64,000 bases of DNA from positions 54,475 to 118,474 of the forward strand of contig QFOX01000001.1 in assembly GCA_003241645.1 (NCBI GenBank), written 5' to 3'. Below are positions 703 to 57,690 of this stretch, one piece after another (within the stretch, counting starts at the first letter, position 1; the number at the start of each line of letters is the position of its first letter). The stretch is from Azospirillum brasilense (GTDB lineage: Bacteria; Pseudomonadota; Alphaproteobacteria; Rickettsiales; UBA3002). Made by a program: the position numbers and the translations under genes. The notes beneath the pieces were generated by a model, which was given only the letters and a program-made list of their open reading frames with translations, ran no database searches and was not told where the DNA came from.

Positions 703-1659
703 CTAACCGCCGGTGACGGCGCCGCCACGGCGGGCGAAGCTGACGATCGCCGGCCCAAGCACGATGAGCATGAACGCGGGCATCAGCAGGAAGATCAGCG
801 GCACGGTGAGCAGCACGGGCAGGCGCGCGGCCTTGCCTTCGGCGATGGACAGGCGCAGCAGGCGGAAATCCTCGGACAGTACACGCAGCGTGTCGGTCAG
901 CGAGGTGCCGAACCGCTCGGACTGGATGAGGGCGGCCACCAGCGAGCGGAACGCCACCATGTCGGTGCGTTCGCCAAGGTTGAGCAGCGCGCGTACGCGG
1001 TCGTTGATGAGGGCCAGTTCAAGGCGGGTGCGGTTCAACTCGCCGGTCATTTCCGGGTAGGCGCGGCCAAGCTCGTTGCACACGCGGTTAAGCGCGGCGT
1101 CCAGCGCCAGGCCGGATTCCACGCAGATCAGCAGCAGGTCGAGCGTGTCCGGGAAGGCGCGCTCGAGCTTTTTCTTGCGATGGTCGATCTTGTTGCGCAG
1201 GTACACGCCGGGGCCAAAGAACGCCGCGAACAGCATGAAGCCGCCGACCGCGTAGCGCAGGATCTTCTGGGTGCCTTCGGCCTCACCGGTCATGTAGACA
1301 ATGGCCAGCAGCACCAGGATGATGGACACCACGCGCTGGAAGAACAGGTAATAGATCGGTCCGTCGGCCGAGAGGATGCCGGCCTGCGCGAATTTGCGTT
1401 CCAGTTTGCGGGTCGCCTCGTCCACATTCACGCCCATGGCGCGCAGCAGGCCCTGCATGGATTTCGCGCGGGGGCTCAGCTCGCCATCCACGCTGTTGGT
1501 CAGGCTGTCATCGGCCATGTCCATGCTGCGCGAGGTACCATCCGGCGAAATGCGCGCGCGCAGCGATTCGCGGCGTTTCGTGTCGCGGCGCTTCTGGTCC
1601 ACGAACATGTAGCCGCAGAAGACGATGATGGCGACGAGAATGGCGAGGGTGAATTGCAT
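703..1659 (-). CDS. tadC: Tad/Flp pilus assembly inner-membrane protein TadC (T2SS-F family), locus 1
   Basis: 318 aa. Contains [25 protein letters not shown] and [34 protein letters not shown], typical of the GspF/TadC family. It is the last gene of a tightly packed cpa/tad operon. Confidence 0.85.
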
Positions 1660-1660
1660 G

Positions 1661-2626
1661 CTAGATATCCACGTTGATCATTTGTTTGACCACGAAGATA
1701 CAGATCACCAGCAGGGTGACCGAGGTGCCGAACAGCGTCATGCCCAGCGGGTCGGTCCAGAAGGCGGAAAGGTAATCCGGCTTCATCACGTAGAGCACGC
1801 AGAACACGAACACCGGCAGCGAGCCGAGGATCCATGCGGTGGCGCGGCCTTCCGAGGTCATGGCGCGGATCTTGTGGCGCAGCTGTTTGCGCTTACGGAT
1901 GATGCTGGAGAGGTTACCAATGATCTCGGCGAGGTTGCCGCCGGTTTCCTGTTGCACGGAAAGCACCACCACGAAGAAGCGGATGTCCGGCTGGTTGATG
2001 CGCAGCGACAGGCGTTGCAGCGCGTCCTGCAGGCTGCGGCCAAGGGCCACATCGTCCACCACTTGGCGGAATTCTTCTTTCACCGGGCTCTCGGCATTCT
2101 CGGCAAGCATTTGCAATGCAACGGAAAGCGGGAAGCCCGAGCGCACCGAACGCACGATCATGTCGAGCGCATCGGGGAACTGGTCGATGAACTGGCGGTT
2201 GCGCTTGCGCACCTTTTTCATGCAATGGCGGTAGGGAATGTAATAGCCCAGAATGAGCGCCAGCAGCAGGCCGGCCGCACCCATGCCAATGGCGGTGAAC
2301 AGGATGGCGCCCACCGTGAAGCCCATGACCATGAGGATGAGCAGCTGTTTCAGGTCGTTCTGGTAGCCCGCCTGCAGCCCGGCCTCGTAGATCGGGCGCA
2401 TGATGGGCGAGCCGAAAATGGTGCGCACCAGCGGCGATTCCTCGCCCAGCTGCTCACGCAGGATGGATTGCTGGTCGTTGTCGGTGCTGCGTGTTTCCTC
2501 GTAAATGCGGTCCAGCGCCTGACGCACATGGTCGCCCGAATCCTCGGGCACGGCTTTCGGGAAAAGGACGACGAATGCCACATAGCTGAGAATGCCGACG
2601 CCCAATGCTGCAAGTAATACGCTCAT
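1661..2626 (-). CDS. tadB: Tad/Flp pilus assembly inner-membrane protein TadB, locus 1
   Basis: 321 aa. Contains FIDQFPDALDMIVRSVRSGFPLSVAL and VQQETGGNLAEIIGNLSSIIRKR, the TadB-type T2SS-F domain. Its stop is 1 nt from the tadC start. Confidence 0.85.
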   Translation of the reverse strand: MSVLLAALGVGILSYVAFVVLFPKAVPEDSGDHVRQALDRIYEETRSTDNDQQSILREQLGEESPLVRTIFGSPIMRPIYEAGLQAGYQNDLKQLLILMVMGFTVGAILFTAIGMGAAGLLLALILGYYIPYRHCMKKVRKRNRQFIDQFPDALDMIVRSVRSGFPLSVALQMLAENAESPVKEEFRQVVDDVALGRSLQDALQRLSLRINQPDIRFFVVVLSVQQETGGNLAEIIGNLSSIIRKRKQLRHKIRAMTSEGRATAWILGSLPVFVFCVLYVMKPDYLSAFWTDPLGMTLFGTSVTLLVICIFVVKQMINVDI

Positions 2627-2636
2627 GGCTTAAGCC

Positions 2637-4049
2637 TTAGGGTTGACGGTTCAAACATGCAAGCATCTCGTTCGCCAGACCGAAATATTCTGCGCGTTGC
2701 AGCGATTCGGGCTGCACCGGATGGCAGACATATTCGCCGCGCAGGCTGCCATCTTCGTTGACGCCGTGGTTCACGTACGAAAACAGGGTCTGGGTGGTGA
2801 TGTTGCCACCATCGAACCCGGTCACTTCTTCGATATGGGTGATGCGGCGCTTGCCGTCGCGCATGCGCTGCACCTGCACGATCAGCTGGATCGCGCTGGA
2901 GATCTGGTAACGCAGCGAGCTGGGCTCCACCTTCACGCCCGACATGGCCACGAGGTTTTCCACGCGGCTCAGGCAGTCTTTCGGGGAGTTGGAGTGGATG
3001 GTCGCCATGGAGCCGTCGTGGCCGGTATTCATGGCCGAGAGTACGTCGATCACCTCGTCGCCGCGGATCTCGCCGAGGATGATGCGGTCCGGGCGCATGC
3101 GCAGGGCGTTCTTCACCAGCTGGCGCTGCGTGATCTCGCCGCGGCCCTCGGTCGAGGAGGGGCGTGTCTCCAGCCGCAGCACGTGCGGCTGGTGCAGTTG
3201 CAGCTCGGCCGCATCCTCGATGGTGATGATGCGTTCGCCCGCGTCGATATGGCCGGAAAGCGCGTTCAACAGCGTGGTTTTACCCGAACCGGTACCGCCG
3301 GAGATGATGATGTTCAGGCGGATGGCCCCGGCGATCGACAGGAATTGCACCATTTGCGGGCTCATCGAGTCGTATTTCAGGTAGTCCGACAGCGGCATTT
3401 TGTTCTTTTTGAACTTACGGATGGACACAAGGCACCCATCCAGCGCCAGCGGCGGGATAATGGCGTTGAAGCGCGAGCCGTCGGGCATGCGCGCATCCAC
3501 CATCGGGTTTGCCTCGTCAATGCGGCGGCCCACACGGCTGACAATGCGTTGGATGATGCCGGTGAGGTGCTGTTCGCTGGCGAATTTGATGTCGCTGAGC
3601 AGGATGCGGCCATGCCGCTCGATGAACACGCGCTGCGCGGTGTTGATCATGATGTCGTTCACATCCGCGTCGCGCAGCAGCGGCTCGATCGGGCCGAAGC
3701 CGAGGATCTCGTCCTGCGCTTGCGATTTGATGAGGTTGATCTGCTGCGTCGTCAGCGGGATCTGGATGCTGGGCAGGATCTTGTCGCTGGCCTCTTCCAC
3801 GCGGCGGCGCTTCCTCTCCATCGGCAGGGCTTCCAGCGCCTGGAAATCGATCAAATCCAGCAGGCCGTTGATGAGGGCCATGCGCGCTTCACGGTAGGAA
3901 GCGGTCTCCAGATTGGCATCGAGGTAGAAGATGTGGCCTTCGGGAGCGCTGGGCGGGTTCGCACTGGTCAGCGAGGCGCCGACCACGGCACCCTGTGGGG
4001 GCAGGCCGTGTTCCTGATGGCCGAAATCAACATGCTTTTTCCCGAACAT
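2637..4049 (-). CDS. cpaF: Tad pilus secretion ATPase CpaF/TadA, locus 1
   Basis: 470 aa. Walker A is IISGGTGSGKTTLLNAL. Also has ITIEDAAELQL, RMRPDRIILGEIRG and NTGHDGSMATIHSN, the T2SS-E/VirB11-like ATPase motifs. Confidence 0.92.
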   Translation of the reverse strand: MFGKKHVDFGHQEHGLPPQGAVVGASLTSANPPSAPEGHIFYLDANLETASYREARMALINGLLDLIDFQALEALPMERKRRRVEEASDKILPSIQIPLTTQQINLIKSQAQDEILGFGPIEPLLRDADVNDIMINTAQRVFIERHGRILLSDIKFASEQHLTGIIQRIVSRVGRRIDEANPMVDARMPDGSRFNAIIPPLALDGCLVSIRKFKKNKMPLSDYLKYDSMSPQMVQFLSIAGAIRLNIIISGGTGSGKTTLLNALSGHIDAGERIITIEDAAELQLHQPHVLRLETRPSSTEGRGEITQRQLVKNALRMRPDRIILGEIRGDEVIDVLSAMNTGHDGSMATIHSNSPKDCLSRVENLVAMSGVKVEPSSLRYQISSAIQLIVQVQRMRDGKRRITHIEEVTGFDGGNITTQTLFSYVNHGVNEDGSLRGEYVCHPVQPESLQRAEYFGLANEMLACLNRQP

Positions 4050-4060
4050 GCGCTGTGCCC

Positions 4061-5281
4061 TTATTTACTGAAACGTGCGAAAAGCCCGGCGCGTGCGGCG
4101 GTGGCTTCCGTGGTTTCCGGGGCGGAAAGGCCGGCCAGGCCACGGGCCATTTTCATGATGTCGCTGGCGAGCGCGCTCGGTTCCATTTCCATCACGGTCT
4201 GGGCGGCGGCTTCGGCGGCCACGATCGTTTTGATGTCGTTGTTCAACGTGTAGCGCACCGGGCTGCCGCAGACGCGCTCGAAATCCTTCTGCTCGATGGC
4301 TTCTTTGAACTTCGCGCCGGAACGGTTGACCACGGTATGCACGCGGTCAAGCGGCACGTTGATCTCGCGGAAGGCGCGCATCATGCGGGCAGCGTGGCTG
4401 ACCGATTTGAGCCAGAGCTGCGCCACCAGCACCAGATGGGTGGATTGCTGGCACGCGGTGGCGACCCACGGCAGCCACACATGCGGCAGGTCGATGATGA
4501 CGTTATCGTAGTTCTGTTTCAGGATATTGACCAGATCGCGCACGGCCTCGGCGCTGACGCTGGGCAGGTAACGCAATTCGGCGGGCGCGGTGATCACGTG
4601 CAGTTTGCCGTAATTCGCCACCATGCGCTTGATCAGCATGGCATCGGTGCCGCGTTCGGGGTGGTCGAACAGGTCGCGGATGCCGTACTGGTTCTGCAGC
4701 GCCAGATGCTTGGCGACCATGCCGAACTGGTAGTCCATATCCACCAGCACGGTGGTGCCGTTGAAAAGTTGGCTCATGGCATAGGCGGTGTTGAGCGCCG
4801 CGGTGGAGGCCCCGTCGCCGGATGCGGCGCTGAGGAAGGTGATGACGCGTTTCTCGGAGCCCAGCGCCATGGTCGGGGCAGGGGCCACGACCGGTGCGGC
4901 GGGCGCGGCCGGGCGGATGGGGGCGCGCAGCGCTTCCACCAGGTCGGCCGGGTTGGCGGGCATGGGCAGGTAATCGATCACGCCGCGGCTGATGAGCCCG
5001 CGATAGAGCTGCACGTCGTTCGCATCGCCCACCGCGATCACGCGGGTGTCCGGCTCGCACTGCTCGGCGAGCACGTCGATCTCCGGCAGGATCTGCTGGC
5101 CGTGGCTGCCGATATCCAGCACGATGTGCGACGGCGAGAAGCCCTGCGCGGCGAGGTGCTGCGCGGCCTGCGACGGCAGGCCGACAAAGATCTGTGCGGA
5201 ACCGGGTGCTGCGATCTGTGCAACGGCCTCGGCCCAGGGTTGGCGGGAAGGATCGGAAAGGATAAAGAATAACGCGCGCAT
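4061..5281 (-). CDS. cpaE: CpaE/TadZ-like pilus localisation protein (receiver-like N-domain plus MinD/ParA-like domain with degenerate P-loop), locus 1
   Basis: 406 aa, between cpaD and cpaF. The MinD/ParA-like core includes LVDMDYQFG. The P-loop position reads SAASGDGAST rather than xxGGxGxT[TS]. Confidence 0.75.
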   Translation of the reverse strand: MRALFFILSDPSRQPWAEAVAQIAAPGSAQIFVGLPSQAAQHLAAQGFSPSHIVLDIGSHGQQILPEIDVLAEQCEPDTRVIAVGDANDVQLYRGLISRGVIDYLPMPANPADLVEALRAPIRPAAPAAPVVAPAPTMALGSEKRVITFLSAASGDGASTAALNTAYAMSQLFNGTTVLVDMDYQFGMVAKHLALQNQYGIRDLFDHPERGTDAMLIKRMVANYGKLHVITAPAELRYLPSVSAEAVRDLVNILKQNYDNVIIDLPHVWLPWVATACQQSTHLVLVAQLWLKSVSHAARMMRAFREINVPLDRVHTVVNRSGAKFKEAIEQKDFERVCGSPVRYTLNNDIKTIVAAEAAAQTVMEMEPSALASDIMKMARGLAGLSAPETTEATAARAGLFARFSK

Positions 5282-5368
5282 GGAGCCCCTAGTGCGATGG
5301 AGTCATGCTGATGTTATAACGGCTTACGCGCCCGCGTGCAACGTAACCCTAAGCAAGAACGAACGATT

Positions 5369-5959
5369 TTAGTCGCTCTGTGCTGATTGGGTCACCGACT
5401 GGTCTACCGAGTAAGCAGGCTTTGCGGCATTCGGGATGTAAGCGCGTGCGCGTGCCTGCACCGCGTTGGTGGCCGGCGGCACATCCGTCAGGTTCGGGCT
5501 GATGAATTGCTGCTTGTTCGACACGTGCTGCACCATGTTGGCGGCAATGGAGCACCCGAACGACGGATGCGGCGCGTTATACGGGTTGCGGCTGTTATCG
5601 ACGAATTGCTGGCGGCAATCACGCGCCAGCAGGCGCTCATACACCAGGGCCACGCTGTATTCGCCCGAGGGGACGGTCATGGTGGGCACGCCGTGCAGGT
5701 CCAGCACTTTCAGGGCTTCGGTGCAGCGCGGGTCGCCTTCGTTGCAATACAGTTCGGCGCGTGTGGGCTGGTCATTCTTGATCCAGGTGGAAAGCTCGGC
5801 AAGGGCGGGCTGGTCGGCCACGCTGAGGTTGACCACCTCGGACGAGACATCGAGCAGCGATTCCGGCGTGCCGCGGTTGTAGAAGGCGGATGCCGGGGGT
5901 TTGGTGCAGGCGGAGAGGGCCAGTGCCGAAACAACGAGAACGGTGGTGATACGACGCAT
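5369..5959 (-). CDS. cpaD: CpaD-like pilus biogenesis lipoprotein, locus 1
   Basis: 196 aa. Lipobox is VSALALSAC. It sits between the secretin and cpaE. The SFGCSIAANM motif resembles NYGCAVNNNL in the locus 2 counterpart. Confidence 0.55.
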   Translation of the reverse strand: MRRITTVLVVSALALSACTKPPASAFYNRGTPESLLDVSSEVVNLSVADQPALAELSTWIKNDQPTRAELYCNEGDPRCTEALKVLDLHGVPTMTVPSGEYSVALVYERLLARDCRQQFVDNSRNPYNAPHPSFGCSIAANMVQHVSNKQQFISPNLTDVPPATNAVQARARAYIPNAAKPAYSVDQSVTQSAQSD

Positions 5960-5967
5960 AACTACTC

Positions 5968-7440
5968 CTAATCCACCATGAAGCCCGAGGGGCCTTCGAC
6001 GCTGGGGTTATTGCCACGCGTGCCGCTCATGGCACCGAAGAAGATGCTCTCCATGAAGCTCGCGGGTTTGAAATCATCGGTCGGAAGCTTCACGTCGCTG
6101 CCTTTGAGCGGATCCACGAGGTACGGGGTGACCGCGATGACCAGTTCGGTCTCGTTGCGTTGGAACGAGGTGGAGCGGAACAGTGCCGAGAGGACGGGAA
6201 TTTCACCCACGCCCGGCAGCTCGTCGATCTGGCTGATCATGTTGTCGCGGATGAGGCCGGCGATCATGAAGCTTTCGCCGGGGGCCAGTTCCACCGTGGT
6301 GGAGGCGCGGCGGGTGACGATGGACGGCGCCGTAAAGCCATCCGACGTTTCGATCACGCGCTCGTTGCTGATCTCGGACACTTCCGGGTTCACCTGAATG
6401 CGCAGGCGGTTCTCGCTGAGCACGTACGGGGTGAATTTCAGCGCCACACCGAAGGGTTTGTATTCGATGGTGGTGGTGCCAAGCTGCTGGGGTACCGGAA
6501 TCGGGAATTCACCGCCCGCGAGGAACTGGGCTTCTTCGCCGGAAAGCGCCACAAGGTTCGGCTCGGCAAGCACTTTCAGGATACCGTCACGCTCCAGCGC
6601 GTCCACCGCGGCGGCAAGGTCAAAGCCGGCAAGTTCACCGGTAACGCGGCTGATGCCGAACGCATCCGAGCTTTCGGAGAAGGAGAACTGGCCGGGGGCA
6701 AAGGTCGGCACGTCGCCGGTCACGTTCCCGAAGCGACCCGCGCCGGTGCCCAGCTGGAAGCCGCTGGTGCCACCGTTGAAGGCGGTCAGGTTCACGCCGA
6801 GATTCTTCAGCGCGCTGCGCTGGATCTCACCGATACGGATGCGCAGCATGACCTGCTGGCCCGCGCTGATCTTCATCAGGTTGATGATGGGCGATACTTC
6901 GCCCGCGGTAACGTCATTGCCTTCTACGAATTTCTTGCGACTGCTCGCCTGCTCGCCAACCAGCTTACCACGTACGAATTCTTCCGCGATCTCAATGGCA
7001 GTTGCGGCGGATTCGGCGCTGGAGATCGTGCCGGTCAGGGCCATACGGGTGTTGATCATGCTCACGCCGATGCGTTCATTGGGCAGGTATTCACGCAGTG
7101 CACGGCGAACGGCCGGCAGGTCGTAGGTCACGGAAACATCCATCGAGCGGATGAGTTTATGGTCGGCATCGAACACGCGCAGGGTCGTCTGGCCCACATT
7201 CTTGCCAATGACCGATACTTTACGCTTCCCGTGCACGAACACGTCGGCCACGTCGGGGTCGGTAATGATGACCTCGCTCATATCGGACGAGGTGGTCACC
7301 AGTTCGGAGCGGTTGATCGGCACGTAGAAGGCCGAAGAAGCAGCGAAGCTCGGCGCGGCGACGAGGCATGCCATGCTCAGCAGGGCGGCGCGGGCGAAAG
7401 GTTTCACGGTCGAAAACAACATGGTGGGGCTCATCGTCAT
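5968..7440 (-). CDS. cpaC: Tad pilus secretin CpaC/RcpA, locus 1
   Basis: 490 aa with a signal peptide. The secretin core reads LKVLAEPNLVALSGEEAQFLAGGEFPIPV...IAGLIRD...PGVGEIPVLSALFRS...ETELVIAVTPYLV. Confidence 0.9.
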   Translation of the reverse strand: MTMSPTMLFSTVKPFARAALLSMACLVAAPSFAASSAFYVPINRSELVTTSSDMSEVIITDPDVADVFVHGKRKVSVIGKNVGQTTLRVFDADHKLIRSMDVSVTYDLPAVRRALREYLPNERIGVSMINTRMALTGTISSAESAATAIEIAEEFVRGKLVGEQASSRKKFVEGNDVTAGEVSPIINLMKISAGQQVMLRIRIGEIQRSALKNLGVNLTAFNGGTSGFQLGTGAGRFGNVTGDVPTFAPGQFSFSESSDAFGISRVTGELAGFDLAAAVDALERDGILKVLAEPNLVALSGEEAQFLAGGEFPIPVPQQLGTTTIEYKPFGVALKFTPYVLSENRLRIQVNPEVSEISNERVIETSDGFTAPSIVTRRASTTVELAPGESFMIAGLIRDNMISQIDELPGVGEIPVLSALFRSTSFQRNETELVIAVTPYLVDPLKGSDVKLPTDDFKPASFMESIFFGAMSGTRGNNPSVEGPSGFMVD

Positions 7441-8387
7441 TGGGCTACAGGGGCGTTGGGCGATTGAAGAAGGGCGGCAGCGGCTGCGGCATCCAGCGGT
7501 GCGGCACTTTCGCTTTCACTTTCGCCGGCTTCGATGCCGCGCACGACAAGCACGCCACCCGTGTTGCCCGAGGCACCACCGGTGGTGCCGAATTCGGGCA
7601 CTTGCGAAATATCCTGATTGCCGGTCACGGTCAGCGGGTCAGCGGTCTCACGATCGGCCAGCGAACGCAGGGCGAGGGTGAGGGTGCCTTTCTGCTGGCC
7701 AAGGCGCAGGCGCTGCGCATCGGCCGGGCTGACCATGAGCGATACCGAGCGCGGTACGATCAGGTTGCCCTGTTCATCGGTTGCGCCGGCGCCGCTTGCG
7801 CGCTGGTCAACCGCCACGACTTTCGCGTTGGTGAGCAGGGTCTCGGTCACCGAATCGGTTTCCTCGCGGCCTTGCGGGCGGCCTTGCTCGTTGCTGGGCG
7901 GGAACACCCATTTTTTAATGTCGTGGGTCAGGATCACGTCCACGAAGTCGCCGGGGAAGACAAAGCCCGCCACGCCTTCGATCTCGTTGGTCTGGATGGT
8001 GATCACGCGCATGCCCTTGGGGATCGAGCCGGCGAGGAAGTTGGGGTCGTTCATGTTGCTGAGCTTCGACAGCAGGATCGGCTCCTGCTGCTGGAAGGGC
8101 GCGCGGCTGATCATGCCTTCGATCTTCTGGTCGCTGTCGGTGGTCACGAAACCGTCGAGCACTAGGTGGCTGGGCCATGCCTGCACGGCAATCATGTCGG
8201 CCGTGACGGTGGTGCCTACCGCGATCGGCTGGGCCGCCACGTAAATATTCGTGGTTTGTACGGGTTGCGCCGCGGCAGTATCGCCGGGCTGGGGCGCCGG
8301 GGCGTCATTGCCGCCCGACATGCGAAGTACGATTACCGCTGCGACAGCAGCCAACACAATCGCCGCAATTAAACCACCGAAACGCAT
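7437..8387 (-). CDS. cpaB: Flp pilus assembly protein CpaB/RcpC, locus 1
   Basis: 316 aa. N-terminal TM anchor is [16 protein letters not shown], followed by a SAF-like region and a CpaB core ([42 protein letters not shown]). It overlaps cpaC by ATGA. Confidence 0.85.
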
Positions 8388-10794: not shown

Positions 10795-11769
10795 ATGGCA
10801 CCATGGCAGTGGGAAAAACGTGGGCTGGTGTTCGATGTGCAGGCCCTGCCCAATCGGCCAGAATGGTTCGATGCGTTCGCGCAGGCGCCCAACGCCATTG
10901 TGCTGGATGACCGCGTGCGGGTGTATTTCTGTTGCCGCCCGAAGGCGGATGCTACGGGCATGTTCGTCAGCTACGGCGCGTATGTGGATCTCGACCGGCG
11001 CGATTTGACGCGGATTATCGGCATGGCCGAGCAGCCCATTATGGAACTGGGCGGCCTTGGCATGTTCGACGAATTCGGCACCTACCCCATCTCGACCATC
11101 AAGGATGGGACGGATGTATATGCGTATTTCGGTGGGTGGACGCGCGGCACCTCCGTGCCGTTCAACGTCTCCATCGGCGTGGCGAAAAGCAGCGATGGCG
11201 GGGTGCGTTTCGACAAGCTGGGCACCGGCCCCGTGCTGGGCCACGCGCTGGATGAGCCGTTCGTGGTCACCTCGCCCAAGATCCGCAAATACGGCGACAC
11301 ATGGTGGCTGATCTACACCGCGGGCATGCAATGGTTCATGCATGATGGCCGCGCTGAGATCGTGTATAAACTGCGCGCCGCGCATTCGCCCGACGGGCTG
11401 CACTGGACACGGCTGGGCCACAACCTGCTGCCCGACAAGCTCGGGCCCGACGAAGCGCAGGCCTGCGGCGATGTGCTGTTCCATGGCGGGCGCTACCACA
11501 TGTTTTATTGCTACCGCGAGGCGACGAATTTCCGCCACGCGAAAGACCGAACCTACCGCATCGGTTACGCGCATTCGGACGATATGCGCCACTGGACGCG
11601 CGATGACAGCAAGGCGGGCATCGATGTGTCGGCCGAGGGATGGGACAGCGACATGGTCGCCTACCCGCATGTGTTCGCGCTGGATGGTGAAATCTACATG
11701 CTCTATCTCGGCAACGAGGTGGGCCGCGCGGGCTTCGGGCTGGCCCAGTTGAAAGGCACCCTCGCATGA
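10795..11769 (+). CDS. Beta-propeller protein, GH32/43/68/130-like fold, function unknown (paralog 1)
   Basis: 324 aa. Repeated blade-like motifs: VRVYFCCR, IGVAKSSDGGVRFDK, WWLIYTAG, AAHSPDGLHWTR, GGRYHMFYCYR, IGYAHSDDMRHWTRDD, IYMLYLGN. Similar end to end to the next ORF. Confidence 0.6.
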   Translation: MAPWQWEKRGLVFDVQALPNRPEWFDAFAQAPNAIVLDDRVRVYFCCRPKADATGMFVSYGAYVDLDRRDLTRIIGMAEQPIMELGGLGMFDEFGTYPISTIKDGTDVYAYFGGWTRGTSVPFNVSIGVAKSSDGGVRFDKLGTGPVLGHALDEPFVVTSPKIRKYGDTWWLIYTAGMQWFMHDGRAEIVYKLRAAHSPDGLHWTRLGHNLLPDKLGPDEAQACGDVLFHGGRYHMFYCYREATNFRHAKDRTYRIGYAHSDDMRHWTRDDSKAGIDVSAEGWDSDMVAYPHVFALDGEIYMLYLGNEVGRAGFGLAQLKGTLA

Positions 11770-12737
11770 TGCGCTGGCAGCATCTCGGCCAGATCTTCCG
11801 CGTGGGCGAGCATGCGCTGGGCGAGGGCATTGTCAGCCATGCGCAAAGCCCGCAGGCGCTGGTGATGGGTGATCGCGTGCGCATCTATTTTTCGACGCGC
11901 CGCCAATCGGCCGATGGCAAATTCCTCAGCACCGTGCGCTACGCCGAGTTCGACAAAACCTTTGCCGCGCCCCTGCACGTCGCGACGCATGAGGTGATCG
12001 CCCCCGGCGCGCTCGGCACCTTCGACGAGCATGGCATTTTCCCCATGCATGTGCAGCGCGTGGGCGACGCAATGTATGGCTACACCAGCGGCTGGAGCCG
12101 CCGCAAAGCCGTGGACGTGGACATGCAGATCGGCCTCGCCATCAGCCGCGACGGTGGCGTGACGTTCGAGCGTGCAGGTCCGGGCCCCATCCTTGGGCCG
12201 TCGCTGCACGAGCCCTGCATGGTGGGCGACGGATTCGTGCTGCAGCAGCACGGCCAGTTCCACATGTGGTACATCTTCGGCACGGGCTGGCAGCATTACG
12301 CAGGCAGCGCGCATCCCGAGCGCATCTACAAGATCGCGCATGCGCGCTCAGCCGATGGCATCGCGTGGCACAAACCGAACGACGGGCAGGCGATCATTCC
12401 CAATGTGCTGGGCGACGATGAATGCCAGGCCCTGCCCACGGTGCTGCACATTGGCGGGCGCTACCACATGCTGTTCTGCTACCGCTACGCGTCGGATTTC
12501 CGCAGCAACCCGGCGCGCGGCTACCGGCTTGGCTACGCGCATTCCACCGACCTGCTGCACTGGACGCGCGACGACGCGGCGCTTGGCTTCACGCCGAGTG
12601 GGCATGGCTGGGACAGCAGCATGCAGTGCTACCCGCATCTGTTCGCGTGGGACAAGGATGTGTATCTGCTGTATAACGGCAATCATTTCGGGCGCGAGGG
12701 ATTCGGCCTCGCCCGGCTGGAGGGGATCGATGACTAA
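11766..12737 (+). CDS. Beta-propeller protein, GH32/43/68/130-like fold, function unknown (paralog 2)
   Basis: 323 aa. Matching motifs: VRIYFSTR, IGLAISRDGGVTFER, FHMWYIFG, ARSADGIAWHK, GGRYHMLFCYR, LGYAHSTDLLHWTRDD, VYLLYNGN. ATGA overlap with the upstream gene. Confidence 0.6.
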   Translation: MMRWQHLGQIFRVGEHALGEGIVSHAQSPQALVMGDRVRIYFSTRRQSADGKFLSTVRYAEFDKTFAAPLHVATHEVIAPGALGTFDEHGIFPMHVQRVGDAMYGYTSGWSRRKAVDVDMQIGLAISRDGGVTFERAGPGPILGPSLHEPCMVGDGFVLQQHGQFHMWYIFGTGWQHYAGSAHPERIYKIAHARSADGIAWHKPNDGQAIIPNVLGDDECQALPTVLHIGGRYHMLFCYRYASDFRSNPARGYRLGYAHSTDLLHWTRDDAALGFTPSGHGWDSSMQCYPHLFAWDKDVYLLYNGNHFGREGFGLARLEGIDD

Positions 12738-13470
12738 CGCGACGCGCGACTACAACGCCGAACAGCAGGACAATGCGCGGCTCTACCATTATGGCTTCGA
12801 CGTGGACGTGATGCACCCGTTCATGCTGCGCAGCTTCGCGCCGTTCTTCCGGCCCGGCAATTGCCTCGAGCTGGGCTGCCACAAAGGCCAGTTCACGCAG
12901 CGCCTGCGCACGCATTTTGCGCCTGAGCACATCACCTGCGTGGAGGCTTCGTCCGACGCGTTGGCGGAAGCCAAACGCGCACATCCCGAAGTCACGTTCC
13001 ACCACAGCACGTTCGAGCAGGTGACGCTACCCACGCGCTACGACAACATCGTGATGACGCATGTACTCGAACATCTGTCGGACCCCGTTTCGGTGCTGCA
13101 GCGCGTGCGCAACGAATGGCTGGCCGACGATGGCTATTTCTTCCTCGTCTGCCCGAATGCGAACGCGCCGTCGCGGCAGATCGCGGTGAAAATGGGGCTG
13201 ATTTCGCACAACGCTGCCGTTACCCCGGCCGAAGCCGAGCATGGCCATTACGTCACCTACTCGCTGGATACGCTGGAGCGCGACGTGCGCGCCGCCGGCC
13301 TGCAGGTGGTGCAGCGCGGCGGTATCTTCTTCAAGGCACTGGCCAATTTCCAGTGGGACCGCCTGCTGCAGACCGACATCATCTCGAAAGAATACCTCGA
13401 AGGCTGCTACCAGCTTGGCCAGATCTACCCGGATCTGTGCTCAAGTATTTTTCTGCTTTGCAGAAAATAG
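12730..13470 (+). CDS. Class I SAM-dependent methyltransferase
   Basis: I use the ATG at 12730 (MTNATRDYNAEQQ...). Motif I-like CLELGCHKGQFT, then IVMTHVLEHLSDP and GYFFLVCPN. The track ORF start at 12172 lies out of frame inside the previous gene. 8-nt overlap with the upstream gene. Confidence 0.8.
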   Translation: MTNATRDYNAEQQDNARLYHYGFDVDVMHPFMLRSFAPFFRPGNCLELGCHKGQFTQRLRTHFAPEHITCVEASSDALAEAKRAHPEVTFHHSTFEQVTLPTRYDNIVMTHVLEHLSDPVSVLQRVRNEWLADDGYFFLVCPNANAPSRQIAVKMGLISHNAAVTPAEAEHGHYVTYSLDTLERDVRAAGLQVVQRGGIFFKALANFQWDRLLQTDIISKEYLEGCYQLGQIYPDLCSSIFLLCRK

Positions 13471-13493
13471 AGTGAGTGACGCGTTGCCGCGTT

Positions 13494-13594
13494 GAAGGGG
13501 GGCGGTGCCACCCCCTTACGCTCGTTGCACTCGCTATCCCCCCTCGCGCGGCGGCTCGCCCTTCGGGCTACGCACCGACTGCATGAACGCTGAG
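13494..13594 (+). repeat. Family-A GC-rich two-hairpin repeat, half element, intergenic copy
   Basis: GAAGGGGGGcggtgccaCCCCCTTA ... CGGCTCgcccttcgggcTACGCAccgacTGCATgaacgctgag. Same architecture as the copies at 32992, 33450, 51621 and 57546. Confidence 0.8.
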
Positions 13595-13607
13595 TATGCG
13601 TCCAAGT

Positions 13608-13637
13608 CTGTCACCCCGTCGTATGACGGGGTCCATC
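13608..13637. repeat. Family-B small palindrome (GTCAyCCCG ... CGGGrTCCA)
   Basis: ctGTCACCCCGtcgtatgaCGGGGTCCAtc. Related units occur at 30212-30300 and 61401-61445. Confidence 0.65.
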
Positions 13638-13798
13638 TTTGGTTCATGTTAGGTGGATGCCGTCATGAAGACAGCATGACGTTACAAGGAATGCATGGTG
13701 TTCGCCTACGCACCCATCCACCGGCCACAAAACTTCGCTTTTGCTTCGGCGCGCGCTGGCGTATATGCATGGCCAACGGATCATCACGAGAGTGCCTT

Positions 13799-27188: not shown

Positions 27189-27210
27189 GTTACGCGGTTA
27201 CCCCATAAAG

Positions 27211-27245
27211 AACGGGCGGCCACGTGGCCGCCCGTTTTTGTTTTA
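27211..27245 (+). terminator. Rho-independent terminator after nrdB (potentially bidirectional)
   Basis: AACGGGCGGCCACGTGGCCGCCCGTT forms a perfect GC-rich hairpin and is followed by TTTGTTTT. Confidence 0.8.
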
Positions 27246-27425
27246 GTGGGTGGTGTGCAGCACGCGCTCATCCTCCGGGCCCCATTTCAGTACCGGTAGT
27301 TGCCGTGGCAGCAGGGCTGAGGCGAAAAGATCGCCTTGCGCCTGTCCGCCACGGGGCATGCCGAGCGTTACCGGGTGAGGGGTGCTTGCCGAGTATGGAG
27401 CAGTGCTTGCATGGGAATGGTTCAT
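27243..27425 (-). CDS. Possible small protein (60 aa), hypothetical
   Basis: GGAGG lies 5 nt upstream of the ATG (ccaccGGAGGcaaccATG). The ORF ends at the nrdB terminator. I recognise no homology. Confidence 0.3.
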   Translation of the reverse strand: MNHSHASTAPYSASTPHPVTLGMPRGGQAQGDLFASALLPRQLPVLKWGPEDERVLHTTH

Positions 27426-27519
27426 GGTTGCCTCCGGTGGGGATTGCTATTGATACGCGCTACAAGGTCAGTATCCTGCGCGGGTTATTAAAAAACCATT
27501 ACCTATCCACAGGCATTGC

Positions 27520-32654: not shown

Positions 32655-34718
32655 ATGCAGCACGCAACCGCCCATGTTCCGCATCCGCAGATCACCGTCG
32701 ATGCCGACGGCACCGCGCGCTCGCTGGCGTTCGACGATGTGTATTTCTCGGCGCGTGGCGGCGTGGCGGAAACCGAGCATGTATTCCTTGCCGGAAACGG
32801 CTTGCCCGAGCGTTGGCAGGGCTGTGGGCGTTTCACCATCGGTGAGTTGGGCTTTGGCACGGGCCTGAATTTTTTGGTGGCAGCGGATGCGTTCCTGCGC
32901 ACCAACCCCACCGGCACGCTGCATTTCCTGTCGGTCGAGAAATACCCGCTGACGCCTGCGCAATTGCGCGAGGCGTACGCTGTTCTATCTCAAGGGGGGC
33001 TTGCCCCCCCTTCGCCTGCTGCGCAGGCTACCCCTGCCGCTTCGCGGCTCGCGCCACTCGACGGCGCTACGCAGGCAGATACGAACCTTGTTACGCTGGC
33101 TGAAGCGCTATGTGCCGCCTATCCGCTGCGCTTGCCGGGCTGGCACCGGGTGAAGCTGGGCCGTGTGCAGCTGACGCTTGGCTTCGGCGATGTGGCCGAA
33201 CTGCTGCCGCAAATGGATGCGCGCGTGGATGCATGGTTCCTCGATGGGTTCGCCCCCGCGAAGAACGACGCGATGTGGAGCGCCGCCGTGCTTTCCGAGC
33301 TGGCGCGCCTGAGCGCGCCGGGCGCGCGCTTCGCCACGTTCACGGCGGCCGGTGCGGTGAAACGTGGCCTGCAGGAAGTGGGTTTCGATGTGCAGAAAAC
33401 CCGCGGTTTCGCGTATAAGCGCGACATGCTGGTGGGGAGATATATTTCCGAAGGGGGGCTTGCCCCCCCTTCGCCTGCTGCGCAGGCTACCCCCGCCGCC
33501 AGCGGCTCGCGCCACTTCGGCGCTACGCATCGACTGCATCAGCGCTGCGAGGATACTGTGCGAGGGCAGCAGCCCGAGCCAGCCATGAGCCAGCGGAGCT
33601 GCGCGGAGGCATCGCACAGCACGTGCGATCTGCCGGAGCAAGCGAAAGAAATCCTCATCATCGGCGCGGGCATTGCGGGGGCGACCACGGCGCGCGCGCT
33701 GGCCGAGCGTGGCTACCGCGTGCAGCTGTTCGAGGCGGCCACCATCGCCAGCGGTGCTTCGGGCAATCCGGCGGCGGTGCTCTACCCGCAACTGACCAAA
33801 TATTATGGGCCCGCCACCGCGTGGCATTTGCAGGCGTACAGCTTTACATTGCAGCAACTGGCGCATTGGAAGCAGGCGGGGCTGGCGTTCGCGTGCGAAC
33901 AGCCGGGCATGCTGAAGCTGGCGACCGACGCGGCGGATGCGGAAAAACTGCGCGGCTTGCAACACAGCCTGCAGCTGGACCCGGCCATTGCCCGCTGGGT
34001 GGAAGCGGATGAAGCCAGCGCCATGCTGGGCCATGCCGTGCCACATGGTGGTTATTATTTTGCGCAGGGCACGTGGCTGAACCCCGCGCAGCTATGCAAC
34101 GCCTTGCTGCAGCATGCGCACATTACAGTGAGGGAAAACTGCGCCGTGCAGCATATCGCGCGGGGCGATGCGGGGTGGCAGCTGACGCTGGCAGATGGCA
34201 CCACGCACCATGCCGCGCAGCTGGTGGTGGCGAATGCGAACGATGCGCGGCGCCTGCTGGACAGCGATGCGCTGGATATTCGCCCCTCTGCCGGGCAGGT
34301 GAGCCTGCTGGAGCCGACGGCGCTTGCACCTTCGTTGCCGCATATCCTCTGCCATAAAGGCTATGCGATCCATACGCCGCAAGCGCTGCTGCTGGGCGCG
34401 ACCTATGACCGCGCGGATCTCTCGTGCGCGGTGACGGAAGCGAACCATGCGCACAATATCAATGAGTTACAGCGTGCATTGCCGCAGGCAGTGCTGCGTG
34501 GGCAGGCCACGGGCGGCCGCACGTCGCTGCGCGCGACCACGCCGCACCGCCTGCCGTATGTGGGGCAAGTGCAGCCGGGGCTGTATGTGAATGTGGGGCA
34601 TGGCTCGCGCGGCATGATCTCCGCGCCGCTTGCGGCCGAGATCCTCGCCAGCGAGATGGCGGGCGAACCGCTGCCGATCAGCCGTGCGCTGCGTGCGGCG
34701 CTTCAGCCGCCACGCTGA
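32655..34718 (+). CDS. mnmC: Bifunctional tRNA mnm5s2U34 methyltransferase / FAD-dependent cmnm5s2U34 oxidoreductase, carrying two in-frame repeat insertions
   Basis: I use the ATG at 32655. The MnmD part has GELGFGTGLNF and VDAWFLDGFAPAKNDAMW. The DAO part has ILIIGAGIAGATTARAL and GASGNPAAVLYP. The peptide GGLAPPSPAAQATPAAS is duplicated. Confidence 0.88.
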   Translation: MQHATAHVPHPQITVDADGTARSLAFDDVYFSARGGVAETEHVFLAGNGLPERWQGCGRFTIGELGFGTGLNFLVAADAFLRTNPTGTLHFLSVEKYPLTPAQLREAYAVLSQGGLAPPSPAAQATPAASRLAPLDGATQADTNLVTLAEALCAAYPLRLPGWHRVKLGRVQLTLGFGDVAELLPQMDARVDAWFLDGFAPAKNDAMWSAAVLSELARLSAPGARFATFTAAGAVKRGLQEVGFDVQKTRGFAYKRDMLVGRYISEGGLAPPSPAAQATPAASGSRHFGATHRLHQRCEDTVRGQQPEPAMSQRSCAEASHSTCDLPEQAKEILIIGAGIAGATTARALAERGYRVQLFEAATIASGASGNPAAVLYPQLTKYYGPATAWHLQAYSFTLQQLAHWKQAGLAFACEQPGMLKLATDAADAEKLRGLQHSLQLDPAIARWVEADEASAMLGHAVPHGGYYFAQGTWLNPAQLCNALLQHAHITVRENCAVQHIARGDAGWQLTLADGTTHHAAQLVVANANDARRLLDSDALDIRPSAGQVSLLEPTALAPSLPHILCHKGYAIHTPQALLLGATYDRADLSCAVTEANHAHNINELQRALPQAVLRGQATGGRTSLRATTPHRLPYVGQVQPGLYVNVGHGSRGMISAPLAAEILASEMAGEPLPISRALRAALQPPR
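32992..33073 (+). repeat. Family-A repeat, in-frame copy 1 inside mnmC
   Basis: AAGGGGGGcttgCCCCCCCTTCgcctgctgcgcaggctacccctgccgcttcgCGGCTCgcgccactcgacggcgcTACGCA. Translated as GGLAPPSPAAQATPAASRLAPLDGATQ. Confidence 0.85.
33450..33551 (+). repeat. Family-A repeat, in-frame copy 2 inside mnmC (interdomain linker)
   Basis: The first 43 nt (from 33451) are identical to copy 1. It then reads ...CGGCTCgcgccacttcggcgcTACGCAtcgacTGCATcagcgctgcgag. Translated as EGGLAPPSPAAQATPAASGSRHFGATHRLHQRCE. Confidence 0.85.
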
Positions 34719-36634: not shown

Positions 36635-36767
36635 TGCAGTTCGCCCACGGTTTGTGGGAATCGGCGGTTTTTTCGTAATATGTAGCTAAAACTCAACGCG
36701 ATTGCTGGTGCAAGCGCGTGCCGGATATGGTAGCGTCGGCCCCGTCATAAAAAAGCAAGAAACACCC

Positions 36768-37658
36768 ATGCCCGCACGCTCCATTGCTATTCTCATCCTT
36801 GGTCTTGTCATTGCTGTTGGCACGGCCGTTTCGCTTAAAAGCCGTATGGGCCAGCAGGCCGCGGCACCGAAGTCGCAGGTGCTGGTCGCCGCGGCGGATA
36901 TTCCGGCCGGCAGCTTCGTGCGCGCCGAATACCACCTGAAGCTGGCCGACTGGCCGCAGGACAACATCACCCCCGCCATGCTGACCAGCGAAGCCGTGCA
37001 GCCGGTGGATTACGAAGGCGCGGTCGCGCGCCGCGCCATCAGCACGGGCGAGGCCATTACCAACAGCATGCTGGTGAAATCGAACGAGGGCGGCTTCATG
37101 TCGGCCGTGCTGGAGCCGGGCAAGCGCGCGGTTTCCATTCCGGTGGACCCTACATCGGGCAATGCGGGCTTCATCTTCCCCGGCGACCGGGTGGATTTGA
37201 TCCTGACCCACAAGATCGACCTGAATGGCGGCGAAGAGCGCGCCTCGGAAACCTTCATCGAGGACGTGCGCGTGCTGGCGGTGGACCAGATGCTGGACAA
37301 CCCCGAGAACAAGGCCATGCTCGCCAAGACCGTGACGCTGGAAGTCACGCCCAAGCAGGCTGAGGAGATCAACGTGGCGAAGGACTTAGGCAAGATCAGC
37401 CTGTCGCTGCGCAGCTTAGCGACCAAGAAAGATGCCGCGGGCGACACGGACGGGCCCACCACGTTCGACGAAGTACTGCAGCAGGAAGTGCCCACCGACC
37501 TGCCGCCGCAGAACCTGACGCGCGACACCGACGTGAGCAAGATCATTACCCCGCGTGACGCGGCGGGCACACGCGTGCGCGTGCTGCGCCCGGGTGCTGA
37601 GCCGCAGGAGATCGAATTCAACCCCGAAGGCGCGTCGCGCGCGCAGGAGATCCGCTGA
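36768..37658 (+). CDS. cpaB: Flp pilus assembly protein CpaB/RcpC, locus 2
   Basis: I use the ATG at 36768 (MPARSIAILILGLVIAVGTAV). Contains GFIFPGDRVDLILTH and VTLEVTPKQAEEINVAKDLGKISLSLRS. Confidence 0.85.
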   Translation: MPARSIAILILGLVIAVGTAVSLKSRMGQQAAAPKSQVLVAAADIPAGSFVRAEYHLKLADWPQDNITPAMLTSEAVQPVDYEGAVARRAISTGEAITNSMLVKSNEGGFMSAVLEPGKRAVSIPVDPTSGNAGFIFPGDRVDLILTHKIDLNGGEERASETFIEDVRVLAVDQMLDNPENKAMLAKTVTLEVTPKQAEEINVAKDLGKISLSLRSLATKKDAAGDTDGPTTFDEVLQQEVPTDLPPQNLTRDTDVSKIITPRDAAGTRVRVLRPGAEPQEIEFNPEGASRAQEIR

Positions 37659-37659
37659 T

Positions 37660-39102: not shown

Positions 39103-39111
39103 GAGAGGCCC

Positions 39112-39462
39112 ATGCGCCATGTGATGCTGCTGATCGCCTGCCTTGGCCTTGCGGCGTGCAGTGATTTCGAGCCACGCGAAAAAGTTGCCGACGTGGACCC
39201 GGACACGGGCTGGGTCGTGCCGCCCTATCCCTGCCCGGACTGGAGCCAGGACGCCACCGTGAATTACGACAACAGCCTGCACAGCAATTATGGCTGCGCG
39301 GTGAACAATAACCTCGCTGTGCAGCTGGCCGATCCGTGGGACCTGAAAGAGGGCCGCGGCAGCGACACCGGCAACACCGATATGGGGGTGCTGACCATCG
39401 AGCGTTACCGCGCCGGGGAGATCCCCGTTCCACTCACCCCCATGCAGGATAACGGCCAATAA
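39112..39462 (+). CDS. cpaD: CpaD-like small lipoprotein, locus 2
   Basis: 116 aa. Lipobox is LIACLGLAAC. The NYGCAVNNNLAVQLADP motif lies between the secretin and cpaE. Confidence 0.55.
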   Translation: MRHVMLLIACLGLAACSDFEPREKVADVDPDTGWVVPPYPCPDWSQDATVNYDNSLHSNYGCAVNNNLAVQLADPWDLKEGRGSDTGNTDMGVLTIERYRAGEIPVPLTPMQDNGQ

Positions 39463-39463
39463 C

Positions 39464-43055: not shown

Positions 43056-43064
43056 GGAGGGCGC

Positions 43065-44060: not shown

Positions 44061-44063
44061 CGG

Positions 44064-44891: not shown

Positions 44892-45055
44892 AGGTCTCTC
44901 CCGGATGTTGCGGTAATGTAGCGCGATTGCCCCGCCGTGACAATGGTGAAACATGCGTGGCGTTTGTCTAAAATTGTAGCGTAAAACAGCGTGTTGCGCG
45001 CGCAATAACGCTGACTTGCCCGCGGCGTTGTGGTATAAGGTAGCCGGGGGTTCGC

Positions 45056-46187: not shown

Positions 46188-46196
46188 GAGGGGACC

Positions 46197-55737: not shown

Positions 55738-57522
<1,785 letters not shown>

Positions 57523-57545
57523 TTCGCGATTGGCCTGCGGCACGA

Positions 57546-57631
57546 GAAGGGATCTGCTATCCCTTCGTCGCCTCCGGCTCCTTACCCTTTCCGTTCACTT
57601 CGTTCACGGCTCGCGCCATAAAGCGCTACGC
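57546..57631 (+). repeat. Family-A repeat, half element, intergenic copy
   Basis: GAAGGGAtctgctaTCCCTTCgtcgcctccggctccttaccctttccgttcacttcgttcaCGGCTCgcgccataaagcgcTACGC. Confidence 0.75.
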
Positions 57632-57690
57632 GTTATGTAAAACCTGTGTATAGGGCGTAGGTTTAGTTGCAGTGACCCCCCAGATTTAGT

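Follow-up and report, generated by a model that had tools for sequence, protein, structure and literature searches.

A GTAG-tagged, REP/REPIN-like family of hairpin repeats with frequent in-frame copies in the genes of an uncultured alphaproteobacterial clade

In a 64,000-nt stretch of DNA deposited as Azospirillum brasilense (GenBank assembly GCA_003241645.1, contig QFOX01000001.1, forward-strand positions 54,475 to 118,474; about 62% GC; hereafter the window), an intergenic segment at position 13494 carries hairpins which recur elsewhere in the window with different stems and unchanged neighbouring bases. What kind of element, here termed family A, keeps its flanks fixed while its stems vary, and how did it come to be dispersed? 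That family A is a real repeat family is well supported: it carries a GTAG tag, resembles the repetitive extragenic palindromic (REP) and REPIN elements, and behaves within genes like the Rickettsia palindromic elements (RPEs). With a probability of roughly 0.6, we consider it a non-autonomous DNA repeat of the REP/REPIN class that has spread in one uncultured alphaproteobacterial clade. Its most noteworthy property, which goes beyond the initial annotation of the locus, is its frequent in-frame residence in essential genes.

The initial annotation had compared six copies or arms in the window, and all six are present where it placed them, according to the sequence itself, pattern counts and a covariance model. 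Full units begin at 13494, 32991, 33450, 51620 and 57546 on the forward strand and at 51808 on the reverse strand. The pattern CGGCTC-N10-22-TACGC matched six times in the window against 0.70 expected matches, and AAGGG-N-CCCTT matched seven times against 0.59 expected, the match at 54114 being unrelated. The covariance model, applied with filters off, returned exactly the six units at 45-68 bits, with the rest at noise level. The flanks GGCTC and TACGC are invariant in all six, and every stem (GCCC/GGGC, GCGCC/GGCGC twice, GGCC/GGCC, GCGC/GCGC twice) and loop that had been listed for hairpin 2 (HP2) is correct. Hairpin 1 (HP1) had been described as always GAAGGG...CCCTTC, but the unit at 13494 ends in CCCTTA and the one at 32991 begins with CAAGGG. 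Likewise, both hairpins of the original two-hairpin description are real, but the unit is larger and contains two more hairpins between HP1 and HP2, plus a leader.

A unit is about 85-115 nt long. In consensus order, it consists of a T-rich stretch of about 9 nt, HP1 (G-AAGGGG..CCCCTT-C, 8-9 bp), a middle hairpin, CTGACCCC, hairpin 3 (HP3; GCCGC-N2-3-GCGGC, nearly invariant), TC, HP2 (G-stem-loop-stem-C, with a stem of 2-5 bp) and TACGC(A); optionally, (G)TAG plus a T-rich or hairpin leader opens the unit. The middle hairpin, GC-N(0-5)-loop-N(0-5)-GC, is a hypervariable perfect palindrome (e.g., GCCTGC-TGC-GCAGGC at 33013-33027 and GCCCGCC-AAT-GGCGGGC at 51640-51656), which shrinks to GCTTCGC in places and is degenerate in the unit at 13494. 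In the seed alignment of 53 sequences, the CTACGC that abuts HP2 is invariant, and GGCTC/TACGC and CTGACCCC are invariant or nearly so. The opposite strand has GCGTAG as its conserved end, immediately beside the hairpin, with CGAGCC as the tail on the other side. The upstream flanks are T-rich, and 34 of 76 copies have a TAG in the 30 nt before HP1 (background 15%), most often at a distance of 9-10 nt. Further small leader hairpins are found in this genome at 13479-13492, 51603-51617 and 57533-57541.

Copies are not confined to the window. One genome per GTDB species was scanned with a pattern anchored on HP1 and GCGGCTCG, leaving HP2 and TACGC free, and at least 104 loci matched. A hairpin followed by CTACGC, which the pattern did not demand, was present in at least 46 among the matches listed, and all 46 of these come from metagenome-assembled genomes (MAGs) named ‘Rickettsiales bacterium’, ‘uncultured Azospirillum sp.’ or ‘Alphaproteobacteria bacterium’; the remaining pattern matches are chance hits in unrelated phyla. 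The nearest named relatives of the window proteins are ‘Rickettsiales bacterium’ MAGs as well. Since the MAG labels are inconsistent, we refer to the host just as an uncultured alphaproteobacterial clade. The covariance model (R1) detected at least 77 copies in 48 sources (E≤0.001, down to E 3e-17), representing at least 16 species-level genomes of related MAGs; family-wide counts rest on these 77 copies (76 distinct rows for covariation). Copy abundance differs among relatives, and identical pairs of HP1 are more frequent within genomes (6.0%) than between genomes (1.4%). No match to family A was found in the plasmid and phage collections searched.

Some copies are clustered. Three units stand head to tail in L033 (284-534; L-numbers are labels of sampled sequences from related MAGs), with a 14-nt repeat, ATGCCTATGTCTTG, between them, and two units lie inside one open reading frame (ORF) in L097 (7289-7462); REP/BIME arrays form tandem clusters of this kind as well. 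The contigs L110 and L111 of the closest relative begin inside a family-A copy, and in L109 the contig end lies within a few tens of bases of a copy, as expected of a dispersed repeat. The family fragments short-read metagenome assemblies of this clade.

Four of the six window units lie in-frame in coding sequence, two each in mnmC (32991, 33450) and rsmE (51620, 51808), where they encode disordered Pro/Ala/Ser/Gly loops that are missing from orthologues. RsmE comprises 326 amino acids here versus about 255 (253-257) in insert-free orthologues; its insert, i.e., two arms plus a spacer, adds approximately 63 amino acids and splits the Pfam domain in two. Other RsmE orthologues carry inserts of varied length at the same loop. 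In the AlphaFold2 model of RsmE, the core reaches a predicted local distance difference test (pLDDT) value of 85-95, while residues 198-253, which fall in the repeat-encoded segment (about residues 190-255), stay below 50 and adopt no secondary structure. MnmC, a bifunctional tRNA modification protein, has 687 amino acids here and 559-620, mostly about 560-590, in eight aligned orthologues, all of which lack both a segment of 31 amino acids in the methyltransferase domain and one of about 57 in the interdomain linker. Unit 2 (32991-33072, + strand, 61.7 bits) lies in the methyltransferase domain and encodes about 31 amino acids (QGGLAPPSPAAQATPAASRLAPLDGATQA). Unit 3 (33450-33528, + strand, 67.8 bits) is located in the linker between the methyltransferase and FAD-oxidase domains and is followed by a spacer and a diverged ‘B-type’ right arm of the form GCGAGG-GCAGCAGCC-CGAGCC... 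(33529-33650, + strand), which is translated within MnmC. This arm has its own 7-bp hairpin, ATCGCAC-GTGCT-GTGCGAT, and a degenerate tag, GCGAGG. Being 89% identical to the tail of the RsmE insert in relative L105 (about 2930-3065), it is a dispersed module itself that pairs with family-A arms. In both proteins, the repeats inflate the annotated length.

The same behaviour is seen across the family: 33 of the 77 copies lie within an ORF that extends at least 150 nt beyond them on either side, and the other 44 are intergenic. Pfam analysis of ten host ORFs with 13 copies identified CarB (three times), LeuS (twice), an inositol-monophosphatase (IMPase)-family protein, RlmN, PurH and PriA (twice). 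Only stop-free frames are used. Copies in the orientation of the gene are always read as GAA-GGG (E-G-G-L-x-P-P...), copies in the opposite orientation are confined to the two frames in which GCGTAG yields no TAG codon, with the translation ...EPLAAGVSEAKG..PPS, and the frame containing the TGA of CTGACCCC never occurs. Intragenic orientation is unbiased (roughly 14 same, 20 opposite). The same surface loops have been occupied repeatedly, at times in opposite orientations, as in the CarB loop between QFAVK and IYIIEVNPR of L074 and L029 versus L004. The PriA helicase of L034 (4389-7358, − strand) contains two family-A units as well as an endonuclease-like domain (DUF559 / REase_MTES_1575) at residues 652-756.

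Two units can be joined into a doublet of approximately 190 nt, similar to a REPIN or a MITE, in which the TACGC ends point inward across a conserved spacer. Besides the window doublet in rsmE (51620-51808), inverted doublets were found in L013, L028, L034, L060, L070, L100 and L112; the majority of copies, however, stand alone and have no spacer. Spacers of the window and its close relatives measure 31 nt and contain TGCATCAAC...GAGGATAC, and those of other genomes measure about 25-37 nt and have a central palindrome near TCAAACGTTTGA. The rsmE doublet is preceded by a leader hairpin, GGCACC-TGC-GGTGCC (51603-51617, + strand), that is kept in L105. It consists of unit 4 as the left arm (51620-51695, + strand, HP2 GGCC-TTAC-GGCC, 67.3 bits), the spacer (51696-51726, + strand, AAGAAATGCATCAACCCCGAGAGGATACGGC), whose reverse complement is the spacer of the L112 doublet, and unit 5 as the inverted right arm (51727-51808, − strand, HP2 GCGC-TTCC-GCGC, 57.6 bits). 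In the L112 doublet, the outer end likewise carries a TAG, and no gene terminates there.

The flagged copy, unit 1 (13494-13573, + strand, 45.5 bits), is composed of HP1 (13494-13518), GGCTC (13553-13557), HP2 GCCC-TTC-GGGC (13558-13568) and TACGC (13569-13573). Upstream, a leader hairpin can be read from the sequence (ACGCG-TTGC-CGCGT, 13479-13492, + strand), and the TAG stop codon (13468-13470, + strand) of an S-adenosylmethionine (SAM)-methyltransferase gene (12778-13470) lies 23 nt ahead of HP1. Downstream, alignment with 33450, 51620 and L105 places the doublet spacer (ACCGACTGCATGAACGCTGAGTATGCGT) plus a right arm truncated inside GCGTAG at 13574-13604 (+ strand), which makes this segment by all appearances the remnant of an inverted doublet. 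The site is filled in relatives, and the closest relative has the same HP2 and spacer. The idea that several copies share a TGCAT centre and derive as half elements from a full palindrome was borne out: the spacer is common to the units at 13494, 33450 and 51620, and the site orthologous to 13494 in the more distant relative L112 holds a complete inverted doublet with the same spacer, there inverted. In the window, the truncated arm gives way to a second, unrelated hairpin family.

Do the stems change in a coordinated manner, as had been proposed? A plain MAFFT alignment misaligned the hairpins of variable length, so that RNAalifold found no more than HP1 and an invariant GCG/CGC pairing. This alignment was replaced by a hand-specified structure, a covariance model and model-based realignment, with anchor-based tests as a cross-check. 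In the model alignment (76 distinct rows, 22 pairs), 92.1% of the cells are paired compared to 82.4% in shuffles, and 131 cells show double-sided changes versus 44.4±4.5 in shuffles (0/500); sliding the partners by 1-3 columns left 1-27 double-sided cells. HP2 alternates between CG and GC at pair 2 (66 and 9) and pair 3 (35 and 29, 1 unpaired), the middle hairpin covaries at all five pairs, and variation of HP1 is confined to its inner pairs (GC 47, AU 19, CG 6, UA 1). HP3 is not supported, as it hardly varies and has 11-22 unpaired cells at several of its pairs; the GCG/CGC pairing from RNAalifold also competes with it. As the model alignment was fitted to the structure, tests relying on the anchors only were added. 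Between its anchors, HP2 forms a terminal stem of at least 3 bp in 32 of 39 distinct interiors (1.4 when shuffled, 13 in left/right chimeras), and the middle hairpin forms at least 4 bp in 22 of 34 distinct versions (0.2 shuffled, 1.8 chimeras). Both approaches agree that the stems covary beyond what GC-rich sequence gives by chance.

Folding energies of single copies, on the other hand, are unexceptional: the z-score of the DNA minimum free energy is −0.9 for the flagged copy, −1.7 to −3.1 for other copies and 0.08 for one arm, and only the whole rsmE doublet reaches −4.05. The structural evidence is therefore comparative, not thermodynamic. Energies this close to those of shuffled sequences would fit a chance resemblance of GC-rich, hairpin-prone sequences, but the excess of pattern matches in the window, the covariance-model matches and the recurrence of the architecture in the related genomes refute this explanation, which we regard as next to impossible.

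The term compensatory variation used in the initial annotation needs qualification. The covariation is real but largely reflects a repertoire of recurring, reshuffled hairpin variants with few independent point compensations. For instance, the variant GCGCCATAAAGCGC occurs in six genomes, window copy 57546 included, and the same HP1 and HP2 variants recur in differing combinations across genomes. As variants recur and recombine, independent compensatory events are far fewer than the cells counted. Exchange between copies is evident in rsmE of the window and of L105. The left arms of the two inserts are 97.6% identical up to GGCTCG, and the flanking coding DNA is 85-94% identical. From GGCTCG on, the L105 insert shares 89% identity with the tail of the second mnmC copy of the window and 61% with the tail of the window's own rsmE insert. 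This demonstrates an exchange of modules between copies at the GGCTCG junction.

Such exchange raises the question whether covariation could be a mutational by-product, arising from template-switch correction of quasi-palindromes plus gene conversion, in which case no structure-reading function would be needed. The middle hairpin is nearly always perfect despite its very variable sequence and length, with few mismatched intermediates. The repertoire of HP1 and HP2 is limited and distributed as a mosaic across genomes, exchange between copies at different loci is directly evident, and pairing is equal in intragenic and intergenic copies (18.2 vs 18.1 of 22 pairs). However, a by-product of this kind leaves unexplained why GGCTC/TACGC and CTGACCCC are invariant, how the family originated and spread, and the insertion event described below. 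It is also compatible with a mobile element rather than exclusive of it. As a full explanation we hold it to be very unlikely; nevertheless, a middle palindrome so variable and yet almost perfect suggests that selection is joined by templated correction of quasi-palindromes or exchange of cassettes in producing the covariation.

Evidence for movement comes from a filled and an empty site. Downstream of a histidine-kinase gene, the window contains 118 nt (57522-57639, + strand) which are absent from the close relative L105, the DNA flanking the insertion being about 90% identical (RsmE: 84% amino acid identity). The insertion comprises a leader hairpin (GCC-TGC-GGC, 57533-57541), unit 6 (57546-57631, 51 bits), GTT and the second copy of an ATGTA motif. 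It changes the stop codon of the histidine-kinase gene from TAA to TAG, the G being supplied by the insert. The upstream TAG cannot always be the element's own end: at the orthologous methyltransferase site, the gene stops with TAG in the window and with TGA in L112, the C-terminus being the same. A TACGCTG direct repeat around the first MnmC copy was also rejected as a duplication, as excision would remove 116 nt and break the reading frame.

Which known class of elements fits best? What defines the REP superfamily linked to RAYTs is a GTAG tag adjoining a hairpin (Di Nocera et al., 2013, PMC3733652). The comparison with REP elements made in the initial annotation is apt down to a detail it had not mentioned, namely that GCGTAG beside the hairpin on the opposite strand is this tag. 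REPs are reported to have short stems and subfamilies whose stem bases differ but remain complementary, to form head-to-head dimers, to occur within genes and to provide TAG stop codons with their termini (PMC3733652); the REPIN concept was introduced by Bertels and Rainey (2011, PMC3116915; see also PMC3337134). Family A shares the GTAG beside a short hairpin, a conserved short tail (CGAGCC), alternative paired stem bases, inverted doublets separated by a spacer, the preference for sites just downstream of genes, an abundance that varies among related genomes, intragenic units and a terminus coinciding with a TAG stop codon. It differs in that about 40% of its copies are intragenic, versus a small minority in published REP families, and in the 5-nt repeat flanking one insertion.

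The intragenic copies resemble RPE-1 to RPE-10 of Rickettsia (Ogata et al., 2000, as summarized in PMC10969869 and PMC3733652). According to these summaries, nearly half of the RPE copies lie in-frame in ORFs (PMC10969869). Both are palindromic repeats of Alphaproteobacteria (RPEs about 100-150 nt) that occur in-frame in unrelated housekeeping genes and encode a peptide compatible with the fold, and, as far as the summaries go, RPEs likewise have no known associated transposase. However, RPEs are tagged with CGTC (PMC3733652), and family A, ending in GTAG/CTAC, is therefore not an RPE. The hosts differ, too: RPEs inhabit AT-rich, obligately intracellular Rickettsia, whereas the family-A host has about 62% GC and a gene set of the free-living type (two Tad pilus loci, cyclic di-GMP and two-component signalling). 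No sequence relationship is apparent, the two being set apart here by tag and host, not by direct alignment.

Other known elements share some of these features. The BIMEs of E. coli, enterobacterial ERIC, Neisseria Correia and rhizobial RIME elements are modular stem-loops with full palindromes and partial units, are co-transcribed with adjacent genes, and have some in-frame copies. Family A is similarly modular, with full palindromes, partial units and some in-frame intragenic copies. Integron attC sites consist of short invariant motifs around a variable self-complementary stem and are recognized as folded single-stranded DNA. Family A is like attC in keeping structure rather than stem sequence, but it lacks an integrase, a cassette array and the R''/R' motifs (RYYYAAC/GTTRRRY), and its copies are dispersed, many of them intragenic.

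RAYTs, i.e., Y1 HUH transposases, are thought to bind the folded single strand and to cut at the tag (PMC3733652, PMC3116915, PMC3337134), and REPs with RAYTs are known from E. coli, Pseudomonas, Stenotrophomonas and Thauera (PMC3733652, PMC3116915). For family A, a strand-specific enzyme most likely recognizes the DNA hairpin in a similar way, by its shape and by its invariant unpaired neighbours (GCGTAG and CGAGCC on the other strand), as HUH/Y1 transposases of the RAYT or IS200-IS605 type do. The stem sequence would be free to vary as long as it stays paired. We propose that the flanks are fixed and the stems free because the enzyme reads a folded single strand plus its tag. A single-stranded DNA intermediate and an enzyme of this type are inferred, and a link to RAYTs is plausible by analogy. 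Insertions would go to AT-rich spots; those in genes would survive in the three of six frames without a stop codon, and in loops or linkers only, where they would become disordered peptide inserts rich in Pro/Ala/Ser/Gly. With respect to local GC skew, 48 of 77 copies lie on the G-rich strand (p about 0.04), a figure to be read in the light of non-independent copies and an 8-kb skew dominated by gene orientation.

Several observations weigh against assignment to the REP/REPIN class. The HP2 stems of 2-5 bp are as short as the shortest stems of published REPs (5-13 bp) or shorter, and three or four extra hairpins, an extension of approximately 55 nt on the GTAG hairpin plus the leader, are atypical of REPs. 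No Y1/HUH (RAYT/IS200-like) gene was detected by tblastn (E≤0.5) in about 0.9 Mb of loci; with three query sequences and a small genome sample, this is a weak negative and not evidence of absence. Several copies occupy orthologous sites across species (CarB, PriA and IMPase neighbourhoods), so that part of the family is old, and much of it may, judging from these positions, be vertically inherited rather than currently mobile. Furthermore, the clean filled/empty site is bounded at both junctions by the 5-nt direct repeat ATGTA (57517-57521, 57635-57639). Finally, intergenic copies near the 3′ ends of genes are co-oriented with the gene in about 17-19 cases to 2, which a REP-type model does not predict. 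This count is approximate, as the gene calls are crude.

The last point fits either a strand-specific target or a role at the RNA level, and in the latter case family A could be a structured RNA element, i.e., a stabilizer in the 3′ untranslated region, a processing site or an attenuator, whose covariation reflects selection on RNA folding. Of the 39 intergenic copies that could be scored, 19 have a co-oriented ORF ending 2-25 nt (in one case 38 nt) ahead of HP1, whereas only about two copies have a convergent gene end at the TACGC side. Some G-U pairs are tolerated (e.g., 13 U-G at one HP3 pair), and REPs are reported mostly downstream of genes, where they are plausibly transcribed (PMC3733652). 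Searches of Rfam 15 give this reading no support: at gathering score, the window contains only two tRNAs, 13400-13700 has no match even at E≤1, and 51550-51860 has one chance-level match (15.6 bits versus a gathering score of 58.6). Nor do the copies look like intrinsic terminators, since the T-run precedes HP1 and no U-run follows any hairpin on either strand. Moreover, the roughly 40% of copies within ORFs occur in both orientations, inverted doublets expose both strands, and presence or absence in close relatives along with module swapping are properties of a DNA element. We therefore consider an RNA element unlikely. In the co-oriented cases, the stop codon is TAG in 15 of 19, against a background of 85 TAA, 81 TAG and 46 TGA. 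For genomes of about 62% GC, TAG is an unusually frequent stop codon (81 of 212 long ORFs of the repeat-bearing loci supported by GC content at third codon positions, versus 46 TGA), and donation of TAG by the repeats might contribute to this usage.

The ATGTA repeat bears on a further explanation: family A could be a miniature inverted-repeat transposable element (MITE) that depends on a classical DDE transposase. In this view, the element proper would be the doublet of about 190 nt with its terminal inverted repeats, an insertion sequence would mobilize it in trans and leave a short target duplication, and single units would be its decayed halves. HUH transposition normally proceeds without flanking direct repeats, and MITEs are delimited by terminal inverted repeats and make target duplications of fixed length (e.g., TA for Correia). 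The rsmE palindrome and the L112 doublet do have long terminal inverted repeats, the copy at 13494 resembles a decayed doublet, and 7-9-nt repeats flank a few other copies; the ATGTA repeat at the clean site points the same way. Over 75 copies, however, flanking direct repeats match the control distribution (at least 7 nt in 7 copies versus 3.1 expected) and have no fixed length. The insertion at the clean site is a single unit instead of a doublet, most copies are single, asymmetric and spacerless, and terminal inverted repeats occur in doublets only. Covarying stems with invariant unpaired flanks are also unexpected if terminal repeats are recognized as duplex DNA. The initial annotation had noted that the window holds no transposase, and Pfam analysis of about 56 ORFs found none; neither the window nor the loci yielded an insertion sequence or transposase with ends that match. 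A DDE-mobilized MITE likewise appears unlikely. When all ORFs of the loci were clustered in search of a recurrent small gene near the elements, only syntenic housekeeping neighbourhoods emerged (CarB, PriA, the IMPase region and XerC/D).

Family A could also be something other than an ordinary REP and represent an undescribed class of multi-hairpin elements recognized as single strands, with an enzyme of their own, possibly not a RAYT, with swapping of cassettes and with RPE-like colonization of genes. In such a class, the enzyme would cut and rejoin at GGCTC|G and GCGT|AG and thereby swap hairpin ‘cassettes’ among copies. We regard this as a long shot, about as unlikely as the RNA element; if true, selfish DNA would have settled in protein-coding genes a second time and independently, in a free-living, GC-rich clade and in a form more accessible to experiment. 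For the REP/REPIN-class reading, the findings extend the Rickettsia phenomenon of palindromic repeats residing in-frame in essential genes to a GC-rich, apparently free-living clade and tie it to GTAG-tagged repeats of the REP type. They provide a second natural system in which to ask how genes can take up such elements and stay intact, and whether proteins gain new loops or linkers from them. Family A is also a useful data set for studying hairpin recognition: its unpaired flanks do not vary, its perfect stems are hypervariable, and the breakpoints of exchange fall on conserved junctions.

The second hairpin family next to the flagged copy has the form TCACCCC-N(4-24)-GGGGTCCA and is located at 13611-13635 of the window (here TCACCCCGTCGTATGACGGGGTCCA), starting 38 nt past unit 1 of family A. 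At the orthologous site, the closest relative (L110) lacks the segment in which this hairpin lies. Further copies were seen in L009, L034, L055, L074 (three), L096, L103 and L107.

Apart from these repeats, the window contains two paralogous Tad/Flp pilus clusters (CpaB, CpaC secretin, CpaF ATPase, TadB/TadC) at 703-8387 (− strand) and 36702-47768 (+ strand), whose inverted arrangement accounts for the long inverted repeats I1-I5 and I7 of 72-83% identity. Two tandem paralogous genes (10795-11769 and 11766-12737) encode about 324 amino acids each and are roughly 78-85% identical at the DNA level in conserved blocks; they have no Pfam match at E≤1e-6 and are kept beside the methyltransferase gene in L112-L114. 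A gene-free gap of 330 nt without an Rfam match (27189-27519) extends from the gene for the small subunit of ribonucleotide reductase to a short PrmA-like methyltransferase gene, whose product of 187 amino acids matches only positions 138-295 of the 296-position profile.

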